From Methanobacteriaceae archaeon (GTDB lineage: Archaea > Methanobacteriota > Methanobacteria > Methanobacteriales > Methanobacteriaceae): a stretch of 20,945 bases of DNA. The DNA lies in contig PWMT01000091.1 in NCBI GenBank assembly GCA_003558085.1, forward strand, positions 1-20,945. Direction: 5' to 3'. The position numbers are program-made. Position 1 is the first letter of the stretch; the number at the start of each line of letters is the position of its first letter. This document shows, in pieces, positions 6,001 to 12,000 of this stretch.

Positions 6001-9000
6001 AGGCATTAATACCATATAACCAAATATAAATCTAAAGTAGGAGAAATCATCAATAACCAAGGCAGCTAAAAGTCCACCTAATGAATAAAGTATAAAACCA
6101 GCTACTAAAAACTGAATTCTACCTAGTTTAATTATTTTAATCAGATCATCCATTTTTTTTACCATAATGCAAATTAGTATGATTTAACTGCTATTTATAA
6201 GGATATAATATTAATTTAAATATATATATCTGATTTAGACTATATTTATCCCCTATTGGTGTAACTTTTGCAGCCAAAATACATATTATAGGAATTGTAA
6301 TTAAGCATAATATAATTATATCTAATGATAGGGGATGATATCACATGAGCGATAATGATGATTCTACAAAAATGGTTTTAGATGAAGCTATTATTAATTT
6401 AAAAAGCGAAGATCCAGAAATTCGCAAAAAGGCTGCTGATGATTTAGCCCAGATGCAGGAAGAAGCATCAATAACTCCCCTTATAGATGCATTAAGAGAT
6501 GAAAATCCACAAGTACGTTTTAAAGCAGCACAAGCTTTAGGTAAAATGGGTAAAGAAGCAGTAGAACCTTTAATCAAAGTTTTAAATCAGGAAGATGGTG
6601 AAACTCTTCGCTATGCTACTTTCGCCTTAAATAAAATAGGAGATCCTGCAACGGTGGATCATTTTATTTTAGCTTTAGATGATGATGATTGGGGAGTTAG
6701 GAAAGTAGCTGCTAGATCCTTAGGAGAGTTAGGGGATAAAAAAGCAGTTCAACCCCTAATTAAAATGTTAATTGATGATGATTGGGGGGTTAGATTAGCA
6801 GCAGTAAGATCTCTAGGGGACCTTAAGGATGAAGCAGCCATTGACCCTATAAAAAAAGCACGCCGCAAAGGGGATAAAGATTTTAAAAAAGCAGCTAATA
6901 AGTCTTTAAAAAAGATTCAAGCTTGATTAAACCATAACATGGTGGAAACTGTTACATAATCTATTTTTAGTAAATTTTTTCCTTTTTTAATTTTAGGGGT
7001 ACCTCATTTTTAAGAATATTGACTTTACATTAAACTAGTATCTTAGTTAGCATTAATCTAAGCTTACCAACATTTAAGTAAAGTTTAAATAAAACCTTCC
7101 ATAATAGTTAGTAATTATACAAACTAAATACTGATATAAATAAACTTAATCATAGTTAATTGTTCTAAAATTAAGGTTTAAATTACTTTATATTCATTAT
7201 TAAATAAAAATACTTCAATATAAACAGAAATAAGTTAAATTTAAAAATTTATATATAGTAATAATACATAAGATACTTATTCAAGAATAGGTTTACTGAG
7301 TGATAAAATGAAAGTGATTGTTGTAGGATCTGGTTTTGGAGGTTTATCTGCTGCAGCTTTATTTGCTAAAGAAGGACATGAAGTCATGGTATTAGAAAAA
7401 AATGAATCTCCAGGGGGAAGAGCCAGTGTATATAGTGAAAATGGATTTAATTTTGATATGGGTCCCTCTTGGTATTTAATGCCTGATGTTTATGAGGATT
7501 TTTTTGCAGAGTTTGGCAAAAAACCGGAAGATCTTTTTGAATTAAAAAGACTGGATCCTTCTTATCGTGTTTTCTTTGATGATACCAAAGTGGTGGATAT
7601 TGCTTCTGATTTAGAAGAAAATTATCAACTCTTCGATGCCTTTGAAGAAAATGGTGGAGAAAAACTAAAGGAATACTTGGAATCTGCCCAGAAATTGTAT
7701 GAATCTTCAGTAAAAGAAATGTTATATAAAGATTTTCGTTCTATCTTTGATTTTTTAAATGGCAAGCTACTTTTACAGGGAATAAGACTCAATATTTTAG
7801 AAAGCCTAGAACATTTTGTAAATAAACGTTTTGAAAGTGATGAAGCCCGTAAAATCGTGGAGTATTCCATTGGATTTCTAGGAGGATCACCCCAAAACAC
7901 TCCTTCCATGTACCATATCATGTCCCATATTGATCTGACCTTAGGTGTTTTCTATCCAGAAGGAGGTATGAGAAAAGTAATCCATTCCATATATGAATTA
8001 GCTTTAGCTTATGGAGCGGAATTCAAATTCAACGAACCTGTAATTTCTTTTGAAGTGGAAGATAAGCAAATAAAACAGGTAGTTACCCCCTTAGGAGTTT
8101 ATGATGCAGATTTAGTACTGGTGAACGCTGATTACGCTCACAGTGAAATAGATTTATTAGATGATAAATATCAAACTTACAATGAAAAATATTGGGATAA
8201 CAGAATCATGGCTCCCTCAGCTTTTGTAGCTTATGTGGGAGTGGATAAAGTGGTGGATGCTCTAGACCATCATAACCTATTTCTAAAAGAAGATTGGTCC
8301 ACTAAATTTGATCAACTATTCGATCCAGAAAAGATAGCTTGGCCTGATTCTCCCTCTTATTATGTGAATGTACCTTCCCGTACTGATTCAACTGCAGCAC
8401 CTAGTGGAAGCGATACCTTGTTCATTCTAATACCCTTAGCCACGGGACTGGAAGATACTCTAGAAAAAAGAGAAAGATTATATCAGCATGTTATGGATGA
8501 TTTGGAAGATAAAATCGATGAAAATATTAGAGACCACATAGTAGTTAAAAAAATATTTGCCTTAGATGACTTTAAAGAAAGATACAATGCTTATAAAAGC
8601 ACCGCACTGGGAATATCTCACACTCTAAGACAAACTGCCCTCTGGAGACCAGCCCATAAAAGTAAAAAGGTAGATAATTTATATTATTCAGGTCAATACA
8701 CTCATCCTGGAATTGGAGTGCCTATGACCTTGATCTCTTCCCAAATAGTTGCCCGGGAAATTAATGAAGAACTTAATAAATAAACTGAGGGTGATGAATT
8801 TAATATGATTGATCAGACTATTCACTCCATATTTAAGAAAGGGAGTAATACTTACTATTATAGTACAATTTTTTTTCCCAAAGAAATAAAAAAAGATGTT
8901 TTCATTTTATATAGTTTTTTAAGAAAAGCAGATGATTATGTAGATGATATACCCCAGGATGTAGAAGGATTCTATGCTTTTAAAGAAAGATACAAAACTG

Positions 9001-12000
9001 CGCTGGAAGGAGAAAAGACTAATGATGTAGTGGCTGATTCATTCGCAGATTTAATTCATAGAAAACAAATTGATCAAGCCTGGGTTGATGCATTTTTAAG
9101 ATCTATGGAGATGGATCTTTCCATATCCAATTATGCAACATTTAAAGATCTTAAAACTTATCTCCATGGTTCAGCTGAAGTGGTAGGCTTGTTCATGGCT
9201 AAAATAATGGGTCTTTCTAAGGAATCATATAAAAGTGCACGTTATTTGGGTCGAGCCATGCAGTATATGAATTTCATCCGGGATATTGCTGAAGACTTAG
9301 AGCTGGGGAGAGCATACTTTCCCCAAAAGGAGCTGCGCAAATTTGATTTAGAGGACTTAACTTTAAGAGAAGTAAAAACGAAACCTGATAATTTTAAATC
9401 CTTTATAAGAGATCAGATAGATATCTACCATTCCTGGCAGGCTAAGGCCGAGGAAGGATATTCTTATATTCCTTATCGTTACCTAATACCGATTAAATCT
9501 GCTGCTGATATGTATACTTGGACCGGATCCCAAATATATCAGGATCCCTTCCTAGTTTATAAACGTAAAGTCAAACCTAGAGTATTACGCATCGTTGGTA
9601 CAGTAATATCCAATTCTCTTAAAAGTTATCTAATCGTTAAAAAACTATCCTGTCCCTTCCATGATAGTTCTGATAGAGAAAATTATTCTAGATAATTTTA
9701 TACTATCTCACATACTTAACCATCCATTATGCAAGGAGTTTTATGCTATCCTTTTTATTTAAAATTTCCCGTTTCCGATTTTGGATATATACCGGGGGAA
9801 CCTATGTAGTGGGCTATGCACTGGGAGCAACTCTTTTTTCTGATTTCCTACGCCCGGAATATTATATATATTTAATATACTTCTTTCTACCAGCCAATAT
9901 ATTTATTTACGGTGTTAATGATTACTGGGATCAGGATACCGATGAATTAAACCCTAAAAAAGATGAAAAAGAGCACCGACTAAAAATTAGAGAGAAATCT
10001 AAATTGCTTTACACCATCTATCTTCTAACTGGACTGAGCCTAATATTGATGTTTTTTCAAAATTGGGGTGAGCGTTTAATATTTGCTGGATTTCTATTCC
10101 TATCCTACTTTTACAGTGCACCACCCTTACGTTTTAAAGAAAAACCATTTTTAGATTTCTCTTCTAATCTATTATACATTATGCCAGGATTATTTGCCTA
10201 TTATTTAGTGGCAGGAGTTTTACCTTCAGGGCTAATATTGCTAGGGGCTTATTTTCATATTTCCGCCATGCATATTTTCTCAGCCATACCAGATATAGAA
10301 TATGATAGTAAAAGTGGAATTAGGACCACTCCAGTAGCTATTGGCCAAAAACCAGCTTTAATTTTAACCTTATTTTTCTGGATACTATTATCAGCCATAG
10401 TTATTTATTTGGCCCAGTTCCATATTCTAAGCTTTCTAGTTATTCTTTACCCTCTATTCCCTTTAAGTTTACTTTTATTCCCGAAATTAAATATTGATAA
10501 ACTTTACTGGTATTTACCCTACCTGAACACTGCCTTGGGCGGTCTTCTATTTCTATTTTTAATCAATTATCAAATCTTTAACTGGTTTTAGTTTAGGTTG
10601 AATAGAATATTTTCTTAGGGTTTGGAGAGAAATAGATTTTATTTTTTTGGTTTATTAAAATAGATGTTTTCTTTTCATGGTTAATAATAGATTTTAATTT
10701 AAACCTCAAAATTACCGACCCTACCTCGGGTAGACCATATAATAAAAATTATCAGGCTCACTCCTATTAAGCAGGGTATATATAACTGCAGATAAAAGTT
10801 CACCGCACTCCAAAAAACCATAATCAATAATAAACTAGAAGATAAAGCTTCTGGTTTCACCTCTCTTATTTTTGAAGTAGTAATACTCACCCCCAGGAGT
10901 GAGGCTATAAATCCAGAGACCACCCATCCTAGAAAATTCATTAAAGGTACTCCATAAAAAATTCCTGGTTCTTTCCACACCCAAAGCTGGAGAGCTACAG
11001 CTGCAGGATCTAAAACCAAGTCACTTATCACCAGTAAAAAAGTGGATAATATTATAATTGACCATAAGCCAGCTTTATTAATTTTAATTTCACTGGCCAA
11101 ATATAGACAACCAATAAAAATAGGAATCCAAGCAAAGGGAAGCATAATCGGAGTTGTTCCCCATAATTTAGGACCAATCAAACCAGTATAATAAAATTCT
11201 GAATAAGGAATCCCAGTATAAATAGCCAGTGTTTCTATAATCAAAGCATAAATACTCAAGCTAATAAGCAGAACTAAACCTTTCCTCCAACCTAACCATA
11301 ATAGCACTGCTATAAAGGAAGGCAGAGCTAAAAATAGAATAAAAAATAGGGATATGATAGCATTTTCTGGACCTATCTCCACATTAGTAACAAAAAAAGC
11401 TGCAATCAAAAGAGAAAAACTGATAATATAAATAAATTTAGAATAATCCTTCAAAATAACTACTCCTTTTGAGGTTTATCTATTAAACAGTATATATCAT
11501 TTCTTCTATTTTTAAGAAGAGGTAATTCAGTTCGAATTTTCTCTTCATCTTCCAAATTCAAGTCAACATATAATATTTCTTCTTTAACTCCTGCTTCTAC
11601 TATAACATCCCCCCAGGGATTAGATACTAGAGAATGCCCATAAGCCACATAAGAAGCTTCATGATCACGGGCAGGTGATGCAGCAGCTACGAAAACCTGG
11701 TTATCTATGGCTCTAGTTCTAAGCAGGGTTTTCCAGTGGACTGGGCCGGTAGTCAAATTAAAGGCACCAGGATAAACCAATAAGCAGGCGCCTTTTAGGG
11801 TCATTAGGCGGGCTAACTCAGGAAAACGAAGATCATAACAAATAGCAATACCTATTTTTCCTAAATCAGTGTCAATGACAGTTACTTTATTACCAGCACT
11901 GAGAACATCAGATTCTTTAAAATAAATTTCACCAGGCACATCTATGTCAAATAGATGCATTTTTCGATGGAAACCTAATATTTTACCTTTATCATCGAAA

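Follow-up and report, generated by a model that had tools for sequence, protein, structure and literature searches.

A conserved gene cluster predicted to encode bacterioruberin-type carotenoid synthesis in a methanogen

Here we describe four adjacent genes in a methanogen of the family Methanobacteriaceae, all within a window of 20,945 nucleotides (the whole stretch of contig PWMT01000091.1 analysed). Judged from their sequences, they probably form a working bacterioruberin-type pathway that would make a hydroxylated acyclic C45-C50 carotenoid from geranylgeranyl diphosphate. What was seen directly is which genes are present, their motifs and conservation, and the relatedness of their proteins to those of haloarchaea; every element tested agrees with a pathway of this type, supporting the interpretation. 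A gene set that yields the red C50 carotenoid bacterioruberin in halophilic archaea, found intact and conserved in a strictly anaerobic methanogen, would thus predict a pigment of a class without chemical record in methanogens, a prediction that is directly testable in cultured strains. The four open reading frames were found where the first-pass annotation had placed them (7308-11454; Table 1).

Table 1. Features of the predicted carotenoid cluster and its upstream flank (window positions)
Feature	Position	Strand	Remarks
Second UbiA-family prenyltransferase (UbiA2)	5242-6165	-	PF01040 51.8 bits; divergent from crtID
HEAT/PBS-lyase-repeat protein, between UbiA2 and crtID	6345-6926	+	HEAT_2 E 4.4e-49
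AT-rich intergenic region, 381 bases, 5' of crtID	6927-7307	+	sequence read directly
crtID: FAD-dependent CrtI/CrtD-type carotene desaturase, in-cluster copy	7308-8783	+	491 aa
crtB-like head-to-head prenyl diphosphate synthase (SQS_PSY), predicted phytoene synthase	8805-9695	+	296 aa
lyeJ-type UbiA prenyltransferase, predicted lycopene elongase/1,2-hydratase	9743-10591	+	282 aa
cruF-type membrane hydratase (Caroten_synth)	10699-11454	-	251 aa, TTG start

Profile scores reported in the first-pass annotation were reproduced for all four proteins. The crtID product gave 676.2 bits (676 in the annotation) against the NF058655 CrtID equivalog, whose cut-off is 640, and 471.6 bits against TIGR02734. 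It possesses an FAD fold at its N-terminus (VVGSGFGGL...E) and, as had been claimed, matches carotene desaturases of the PDB over its full length, 4rep and 4dgk aligning to residues 3-488 and 4-483. When the CrtID model was run on control genomes at E≤1e-50, matches were obtained in five named genomes only, all with carotenoid-type genes. The lyeJ-type protein scored 355.1 bits (355 in the annotation) against NF009516, 150 bits above the cut-off of 205. The control for this model had been described as restricted to Haloferax volcanii; a single genome of the 14 named did exceed the cut-off, but three (Deinococcus, Corynebacterium and Haloferax) gave a match at E≤1e-30. The cruF product matched PF04240 Caroten_synth at E 3.9e-47 (4e-47 in the annotation) and narrowly exceeded the cut-off of TIGR03460 (CruF), with 166.4 bits against 154.7. 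Three of the four proteins thus lie above curated equivalog cut-offs. The fourth, the only SQS_PSY protein of its genome, matched PF00494 at E 1.3e-54 (1e-54 in the annotation). Besides the FAD fold, two Asp-rich motifs each are intact in the synthase (DDYVD and RDIAED) and in the prenyltransferase (N59 D60 xx D63 xxx D67 and D184 x E186 x D188).

The best reference matches of all four proteins were haloarchaeal, with identities of 43% for crtID (in-cluster desaturase), 29-30% for the synthase, 35-39% for the prenyltransferase and 33-37% for annotated CruF (41 invariant columns). They came from Halarchaeum sp. CBA1220 and Halocatena salina, where the four gene types are adjacent and carry the annotations phytoene/squalene synthase, crtI, prenyltransferase and cruF. 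Matches to Pantoea CrtI/CrtB, to CrtN/CrtM of Staphylococcus and to HpnC/D/E of Streptomyces, all in the same reference set, were weaker. The sources on the bacterioruberin cluster of Haloarcula japonica and Haloferax volcanii, as far as available to us, describe the same four enzyme families encoded by adjacent genes, and Haloarcula CrtI-type enzymes combining CrtI and CrtD functions. This bifunctional desaturase family, the prenyltransferase Asp-rich motifs and many CruF residues are common to the haloarchaeal and methanogen clusters. However, identities are just 29-43%, the haloarchaeal order is crtB-crtI-lye-cruF or crtI-lye-cruF-crtB rather than crtID-crtB-lyeJ with a movable cruF, the methanogen host is a strict anaerobe, and a second UbiA gene often adjoins the methanogen cluster. 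The available part of a report on Hikarchaeia (mBio 2026, PMC13753752) likewise deduces bacterioruberin synthesis from genomes alone; its crtB-crtI-lyeJ-cruF suite also does without a separate crtD and is likened to ours by gene set alone, and its hosts are aerobic marine relatives of Halobacteria, in contrast to an anaerobic methanogen. Actinobacterial C50 clusters (pink Arthrobacter, Corynebacterium) also carry crtB and crtI next to a UbiA-type elongase gene (crtB-crtI-lycopene elongase on an Arthrobacter plasmid), but their proteins are more distant (elongase 29%, CrtI 32%, CrtB 27% identity) and no CruF-type gene was found among the clusters compared.

Profile searches of 328 Methanobacteriales genomes detected CrtID in 49, NF009516 in 48, SQS_PSY in 48 (E≤1e-10) and TIGR03460 CruF in 77 (E≤1e-10; 41 over the cut-off), with all four families confined to one set of 11 genera out of 29. 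The first-pass annotation had given these genera and the first two counts correctly; its 47 for SQS_PSY becomes 48, and its 76 for CruF was obtained with Pfam. It was also right that the cluster is absent from three genera totalling 153 genomes (g19, 0/103; g17, 0/26; g22, 0/24), that gene order is kept in the genomes with the cluster and that the cluster is conserved in its own genus, where genome G128 retains the four genes and their flanks. The synthase gene is single-copy and flanked by those for desaturase and prenyltransferase, in the order crtID-SQS_PSY-lyeJ, in all 48 genomes that possess it; 21 of 22 fetched loci agree, the last ending at a contig edge. As the annotation had stated for Caroten_synth, a cluster-type cruF lies close to CrtID on the same contig in 48 of the 49 CrtID genomes, the exception being G129, where stop codons interrupt crtID and both LyeJ and SQS_PSY are missing.

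The arrangement Lhr-PdeM-UbiA2-HEAT-crtID-crtB-lyeJ-cruF-Nit is common to two families of the order, suggesting long vertical retention. Comparison with a same-genus genome gave pN of 0.08-0.18 against pS of about 0.7 for the cluster genes, and this low non-synonymous divergence indicates that the cluster is under purifying selection. All nine genomes of genus g29 keep it. Distribution is patchy within genera (g9, 8/26; g10, 3/19; g11, 5/32; g13, 10/23) and one gene is broken in 5 of the 49 genomes (crtID in G129; lyeJ in G097; cruF in G124, G025 and G127), implying that the cluster is dispensable. Named homologues were found in Methanothermobacter, Methanobacterium, Methanosalsum and Caldarchaeum; as they extend to Methanosarcinales and to Caldarchaeum/Aigarchaeota records, the cluster is not peculiar to Methanobacteriales. 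Parts of it were known before. Automatic JGI annotation names some homologues in database records, and two phylogenetic papers pointed out methanogen CrtB/CrtI, in 2010 and again in 2022, both as the first-pass annotation had led us to expect for database and 2010 paper. The table of a review that it quoted (Table 3, the part available to us) indeed reads 'Methanogens: Unknown', and a full-text literature search found no pigment or lipid data for cluster-bearing methanogens.

From sequence we infer the catalytic steps, a C40 starting length, the identity of the product and that the genes are expressed. The SQS_PSY protein would make phytoene by head-to-head joining of two geranylgeranyl diphosphates, and a single CrtI/CrtD-type flavoenzyme would convert this to lycopene, introducing 3,4 double bonds later. 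The LyeJ-type UbiA protein would add C5 from dimethylallyl diphosphate onto C-2 of each psi-end, with hydration of C-1, and the CruF-type membrane hydratase would add water to the appended units, yielding bacterioruberin or an anhydro precursor. As all hydroxyl groups would be water-derived, an oxidant would be required by the desaturase alone. Gene set, motifs, order and haloarchaeal kinship agree with the acyclic C40-C50 carotenoid of the earlier prediction, the product itself being a deduction from the genes.

That the pathway instead ends at C40 or leads to another product than bacterioruberin (lycopene, hydroxylated lycopene, the product of a prenyltransferase unlike LyeJ, or a lycopane-type hydrocarbon after saturation) seems rather unlikely. 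Prenyltransferase and CruF are only 35-39% and 33-37% identical to their haloarchaeal counterparts, CruF stays below the cut-off of the haloarchaeal model (NF041333 CruF_Halo, 110.4 bits against 300), and no cruF was found within 8 kb of four aigarchaeotal loci. Yet the prenyltransferase clears its equivalog cut-off by 150 bits and has 66 columns invariant with the haloarchaeal enzymes, and cruF accompanies the cluster in 48 of 49 genomes.

A C30 route, in which the SQS_PSY protein would condense farnesyl diphosphate to presqualene diphosphate, dehydrosqualene or squalene and the flavoenzyme and two membrane enzymes would alter the C30 backbone, appears unlikely. This caveat of the first-pass annotation stands in so far as the synthase is below the cut-offs of all NCBIfam equivalogs: HpnD is the top match (128.6 bits against 278.6), and the CrtB models, with cut-offs of 480-550 bits, give 85-103. 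In the PDB it matches CrtM and dehydrosqualene synthases best, and squalene and hydrosqualenes are reportedly neutral lipids of methanogens. The caveat is weakened by the residue aligned with CrtM Phe26, which is said to set chain length. It is Thr in the window clade, as in the C40 CrtBs of haloarchaea aligned with it, and Ser in Pantoea and Thermus CrtB; CrtM and, in all, the three C30 synthases compared have Phe, HpnD has Ile and HpnC Pro. BLASTP ranked haloarchaeal, Pantoea and Thermus CrtB above HpnD, CrtM and HpnC, and the tree places the synthase as sister to haloarchaeal CrtB with weak support (80/60) and very long branches. The partner desaturase is an equivalog-level CrtID that groups in a clade of other in-cluster copies, far from HpnE. 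Since SQS_PSY is missing from 280 of 328 genomes, it cannot be the general squalene route of the order.

The electron acceptor of the desaturase is a mechanistic gap in the bacterioruberin-type pathway. Methanobacteriales are not known to possess quinones or methanophenazine. Pantoea CrtI shows no activity under nitrogen without added quinone, and studied CrtI requires O2 or quinone. For want of an acceptor, the cluster might be silent in normal anoxic life with no product accumulating, which we consider improbable. Gene decay in 5 of 49 genomes would fit such silence, as would a literature search that found no pigment reports from the much-studied Methanothermobacter strains; the low non-synonymous divergence, retention throughout g29 and synteny conserved across two families argue against it. 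An anaerobic-digester RNA library contains four contigs that match stretches of crtID exactly; they also speak against silence and give a weak hint that crtID is transcribed. These contigs are confined to crtID, and DNA carry-over could in principle account for them.

Very unlikely is a role in modifying other isoprenoids (unsaturated archaeol intermediates, or polyprenyl chains with psi-end-like termini) with no free carotenoid: CruF-like paralogues in genomes without CrtID (TIGR03460 in 77 genomes against CrtID in 49) and UbiA2-like paralogues in 115 of 328 genomes (many lacking the cluster) do imply further substrates for these families, but a dedicated head-to-head synthase sits between desaturase and prenyltransferase in 48 of 48 genomes, intact cluster-type CruF reaches at least 114 bits on TIGR03460 against about 80 or less for scattered paralogues, and the genome's one further CrtI-like gene is extremely distant from crtID. 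The precedent for this reading is the hydroxyarchaeol synthase (Has) of the methanogen Methanosarcina acetivorans, which the available part of its source describes as a CrtI-family lipid hydratase, of the same flavoprotein superfamily as crtID. Unlike crtID, Has works without a head-to-head synthase, elongase or CruF partner, and no CrtID-model match was obtained in M. acetivorans at E≤1e-50.

Direct reading of the AT-rich region upstream of crtID revealed a TTTATATATA stretch about 55 bases 5' of the ATG and a purine-rich GAGTGAT immediately 5' of it; the region is probably the promoter region of a crtID-crtB-lyeJ operon. The cruF gene is convergent to lyeJ and follows the CN_hydrolase gene at a distance of 5 bases. 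UbiA2, which shows only weak, MenA-like NCBIfam matches and carries the motifs NDYFDLDAD and DKEAD, is possibly an accessory gene of the cluster; in 23 of 49 CrtID genomes it and crtID are no more than about 2 kb apart. The HEAT/PBS-lyase-repeat gene keeps its place in its own genus (loci L036 and L060) and in genus g29 of another family (L066 and L067), and is a neighbour by position only.

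The assembly that contains the window comprises 1.86 Mb in 175 contigs and is 95.9% complete, the window being contig C109. Profile search of the window proteins reproduced the family scores quoted in the first-pass annotation and confirmed the four-gene cluster that it had observed. The first three genes (crtID, crtB and lyeJ) are separated by gaps of 21 and 47 bases and are preceded by an AT-rich spacer of 381 bases in which a TATA-like stretch occurs, suggesting that they form one operon. On the minus strand, the stop of a CN_hydrolase gene is followed after 5 bases by the start of cruF. 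Along the window, G+C content is even (0.27-0.37).

Coordinates of the cluster genes, neighbouring genes and paralogues, with the broken copies of cluster genes
Feature	Sequence	Coordinates	Strand	Length or remark
crtID flavoprotein	window	7308-8783	+	491 aa
SQS_PSY protein (crtB-like)	window	8805-9695	+	296 aa
UbiA-family protein (lyeJ-type)	window	9743-10591	+	282 aa
Caroten_synth protein (cruF-type)	window	10699-11454	-	251 aa; convergent
UbiA2 (second UbiA-family gene)	window	5242-6165	-	divergent from crtID
DNA-damage genes (Lhr-type helicase, PdeM-like phosphoesterase, endonuclease NucS)	window	1566-4974 and 15831-16580	-	flank the cluster
Radical-SAM protein	window	12399-13529	-	N-terminal 2Fe-2S domain
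AAA ATPase and VWA CoxE-like protein	window	13752-15812	+	gene pair
Second UbiA2 copy	own assembly, other contig	G000:C73:14457-15368		90% identity
Second CrtID paralogue	locus L062	9089-10537		after lyeJ
Second CrtID paralogue	locus L063	9460-10908		after lyeJ
Second CrtID paralogue	locus L064	4933-6345		after lyeJ
Second CrtID paralogue	at least 8 others (L059, L061, L065, L068-L072)			alone, elsewhere in genome
CruF-like paralogues	example 1	G067:C1:843168-859930
CruF-like paralogues	example 2	G041:C4:1767840-1770786
Broken crtID	genome G129			stop codons; lyeJ and synthase not found
Broken lyeJ	genome G097			split
Broken cruF	genome G124			split
Broken cruF	genomes G025 and G127			TGA within gene

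The crtID product scored 676.2 bits against the CrtID equivalog NF058655 (cut-off 640), with residues 3-482 of 491 covered; this cut-off was exceeded in 46 of the 328 genomes of the order Methanobacteriales. An FAD-binding Rossmann motif (VVGSGFGGL...VLEKN) occupies residues 4-32, and the PDB carotene desaturases 4rep and 4dgk align with residues 3-488 and 4-483, so that the CrtI-type fold is matched end to end. Identity to haloarchaeal in-cluster crtI is 42-43%. Methanogen and aigarchaeotal sequences formed one clade in the desaturase tree (support 99), where the window crtID is the in-cluster copy; a search for a second copy in its own assembly found none. In three genomes of genus g9, lyeJ is directly followed by another CrtID paralogue with 62-66% identity to that of the window, and further genomes carry such a paralogue on its own. 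Such second copies form one clade, indicating a single duplication within the family. They recall the two bifunctional desaturases of Haloarcula japonica; the Haloarcula CrtI-type enzymes C0507 and D1086 are each credited with CrtI and CrtD activity.

The assignment of the prenyltransferase is likewise based on an equivalog, since it scored 355.1 bits against NF009516 (LyeJ; cut-off 205), a threshold exceeded in only 1 of 14 named control genomes. Both UbiA Asp-rich motifs (NDxxDxxxD and DxExD) are present, and residues N59, D60, D63, D67, D184, E186 and D188 are invariant with those of two haloarchaeal cluster prenyltransferases, the counterparts to which overall identity is 35-39%. When methanogen and haloarchaeal sequences were aligned together with an aigarchaeotal one, 66 columns were invariant across the methanogen and haloarchaeal ones. 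Some lyeJ homologues with 67-75% identity are named lycopene elongase/hydratase by JGI auto-annotation; the remaining homologues have generic names at NCBI.

The hydratase matched Caroten_synth (PF04240) with an E value of 3.9e-47 and passed the archaeal CruF model TIGR03460 narrowly (166.4 bits, cut-off 154.7). Its score against the haloarchaeal CruF equivalog NF041333 was 110.4 bits, below the cut-off of 300. It is 33-37% identical to haloarchaeal cruF, and 41 alignment columns do not vary between methanogen and haloarchaeal sequences. Extra Caroten_synth/CruF-like paralogues scoring 43-80 bits are present in many genomes of the family, either as single genes of about 280 aa or as tandem sets of two or three at about 310-320 aa. 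Their presence also in genomes devoid of CrtID, SQS_PSY and LyeJ points to non-carotenoid substrates for this family of membrane proteins.

Of the four assignments, that of the head-to-head synthase is the weakest, and whether its product has 30 or 40 carbons has to be weighed. The protein matched SQS_PSY (PF00494) with an E value of 1.3e-54 and contains the Asp-rich motifs DDYVD and RDIAED, which the whole methanogen/aigarchaeote clade of 22 sequences keeps, save that in three aigarchaeotal members the first motif has Asn in place of an Asp. Its scores fell below the cut-offs of the CrtB equivalogs NF045921 (102.8 versus 500 bits), NF045686 (91.5 versus 550) and NF042419 (85.4 versus 480), models named for Rhodobacter-type, cyanobacterial and general CrtB. 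The top NCBIfam match was HpnD (128.6 bits), also below its cut-off of 278.6. Work by Umeno and colleagues in 2002 reportedly found that residue Phe26 of the C30 synthase CrtM limits chain length and that a small residue there allows C40. In our alignment this position is Thr in all 22 window-clade sequences but one aigarchaeotal sequence (Ala); it is Thr in both haloarchaeal CrtBs, Ser in Pantoea and Thermus CrtB, Phe in CrtM, Ile in HpnD and Pro in HpnC. The three C30 synthases among the PDB matches listed are in keeping with this: two have Phe at this position, and the third, with Ala, we take to be an engineered Phe26Ala form. The Thr residue, together with the partner genes, favours phytoene as the predicted product.

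Identity of the synthase to haloarchaeal cluster phytoene/squalene synthases is 29-30%. In the synthase tree, the methanogen and aigarchaeotal sequences fell into one clade (100/100), with those of Methanosalsum and Methanolobus nested among the Methanobacteriales ones; some tree rows may have slightly wrong N-termini owing to the ORF-extension routine. An ESM Atlas look-up of the synthase and the prenyltransferase returned generic SQS_PSY and UbiA clusters only. An apparent CrtB-LyeJ fusion at locus L044 (a 590-aa row) was rejected, as its translation has a stop codon between the genes.

As in the window, annotated phytoene/squalene synthase, crtI, prenyltransferase and cruF genes stand side by side on two haloarchaeal replicons. 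Each window protein matched a haloarchaeal cluster protein better than any other reference compared, the others including Pantoea CrtI/CrtB, Thermus CrtB, Staphylococcus CrtM/CrtN/CrtP and Streptomyces HpnC/D/E. A crtD-lyeJ-cruF cluster is described as making bacterioruberin from lycopene, and a 2026 mBio paper (PMC13753752) reads Hikarchaeia with the same four genes as bacterioruberin producers. The earlier bacterioruberin-type interpretation of the cluster is supported as a genomic prediction. In the proposed pathway, GGPP would be condensed to phytoene and phytoene desaturated to lycopene. C5 units would then be joined to both lycopene ends, accompanied by hydration and 3,4-desaturation, with the LyeJ-type enzyme predicted to add C5 onto lycopene C-2 and to hydrate C-1; finally, the added units would be hydrated. 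By homology at every step, the product would most likely be bacterioruberin or an anhydro precursor.

In the known pathway, water supplies the hydroxyl groups, so oxygen would not be needed as a substrate. The desaturase alone would still be in need of an oxidant. Methanobacteriales are not known to have quinones or methanophenazine. Pantoea CrtI uses O2 or quinones and is 'fully inactive' under nitrogen. The acceptor in the methanogens would be either O2 itself or a novel one, and if it is O2, synthesis would be oxygen-triggered. We offer as a speculation, and a rather unlikely one, that cytochrome-free methanogens not known to have quinones, including laboratory Methanothermobacter and Methanobacterium, make a C50 carotenoid with one of two acceptors. 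With O2, pigment synthesis would be switched on by intruding oxygen and consume it, yielding a self-triggering antioxidant and membrane shield; the second would be a novel non-quinone carrier, possibly one produced with help from the adjacent UbiA2.

Matches to CrtID, NF009516 and SQS_PSY were found in 49, 48 and 48 of the 328 genomes, respectively, and those to the CruF family in 77 at E<=1e-10 (41 over the cut-off), each confined to the same 11 of 29 genera. All four genes occur in 9/9 genomes of g29, a genus of a second family, and none was found in three large genera of 103, 26 and 24 genomes (153 in all). Row-by-row coordinates place the single SQS_PSY gene between desaturase and prenyltransferase in 48/48 genomes, and a cluster-type CruF adjoins in 48 of the 49 with CrtID. 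Among the fetched loci, the order crtID-crtB-lyeJ is kept in 21 of 22, the last of which ends at a contig edge, and cruF is upstream, downstream or convergent. Distribution is patchy within genera (g9, 8/26; g10, 3/19; g11, 5/32; g13, 10/23), and 5 of the 49 CrtID genomes have a broken cluster gene, indicating that the cluster is accessory and is sometimes being lost.

Compared with a same-genus genome, the four genes gave pN of 0.08-0.18 and pS of about 0.7 (0.64-0.78), values that we quote in place of dN/dS because synonymous sites are saturated at this distance and beyond use against the g29 locus L066. The flanking helicase and NucS genes have pN and pS in the same range. A wider order, Lhr-PdeM-UbiA2-HEAT-crtID-crtB-lyeJ-cruF-Nit-(gap)-AAA (HEAT being a repeat-protein gene), is common to the window, the own-genus loci L036 and L060, and L066 and L067 of g29. 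Such sharing is more readily explained by long vertical retention with later losses than by a recent arrival.

Close homologues were also found in named Methanobacterium (sp. ACI-7, MBAC-LM, M. oryzae, M. formicicum and M. alcaliphilum), in Methanothermobacter marburgensis and other Methanothermobacter, and in Methanosalsum zhilinae, M. natronophilum and a Methanolobus MAG. Records of Methanofastidiosum, Methanomassiliicoccales, Methanosuratincola, Thermoplasmatota and Candidatus Caldarchaeum reach about 59-63% identity to the prenyltransferase; statements on these groups (Thermoplasmatota aside) and on Methanosarcinales rest on the source names of single proteins or records. Four aigarchaeotal loci have crtID-crtB-lyeJ in the same order, with no cruF found within 8 kb. 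At locus L038, titled Methanomicrobiales archaeon, all three of these genes lie within the Methanobacteriaceae clade, tightly grouped with those of the Methanobacteriaceae MAG L040; the taxonomic label of the L038 record may be wrong.

Klassen 2010 (PMC2889829) places clades of methanogen CrtB and of methanogen CrtI next to haloarchaea and Crenarchaeota, Santana-Molina et al. 2022 (PMC9907078) describe an archaeal CrtIb group that is monophyletic and contains Methanobacteria, and a 2022 review gives methanogen carotenoids as 'Unknown'. Full-text searches, with subscription journals outside their scope, as were the supplements of PMC9907078 (with its CrtIb tree) and PMC2889829, where these genes may be listed, found no literature on the four-gene cluster in methanogens or on any methanogen carotenoid. 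The system is of a known type in an unexpected physiological setting. If the prediction is true, a C50 membrane pigment recorded chiefly in aerobic halophiles would also belong to strict anaerobes, which would bear on methanogen tolerance of oxygen and stress. It would also raise a clear question about the electron acceptor: what re-oxidises a CrtI-type flavoenzyme in a quinone-free cell? The prediction lends itself to immediate testing, since close homologues occur in named organisms that are in culture (M. marburgensis, M. formicicum, M. oryzae, M. alcaliphilum, Methanobacterium sp. ACI-7 and M. zhilinae), and the patchy distribution among genera provides a natural comparison.

A weak hint of transcription came from X1, a small RNA library from an anaerobic digester, in which four contigs are identical to crtID (7544-7712, 7829-7954, 7925-8006 and 8317-8468); the library had itself been located by means of this stretch, and the contigs may stem from DNA carry-over. 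No X1 contig was identical to the other 18.5 kb searched, including crtB, lyeJ, cruF and the flanks, which is no sign of silence. Library X2, from alkali sediment, yielded a chimeric fragment and a single short exact match within the VWA gene, and is given no weight.

Several neighbouring genes deserve mention. UbiA2 is weakly MenA-like with both Asp-rich motifs intact, and a PDB sequence search with it gave no match at E<=0.01. Of the 49 CrtID genomes, 23 (genera g1, g9, g24 and g29) have it no farther than about 2 kb from crtID; members of its multi-copy family occur in 115 of the 328 genomes, many lacking the cluster. The radical-SAM gene, upstream of the CN_hydrolase-cruF pair, was not found at this place in L036 and L060. 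The Lhr-type helicase scored 1284 bits against NF010338, and in two families of the order Lhr-PdeM adjoins the cluster; the flanking DNA-damage genes might reflect a stress response shared with it. The AAA ATPase is MadB-like (220 bits, below the cut-off of 475), and the AAA-VWA pair is found downstream of the cluster also in the rest of the genus and in g29.
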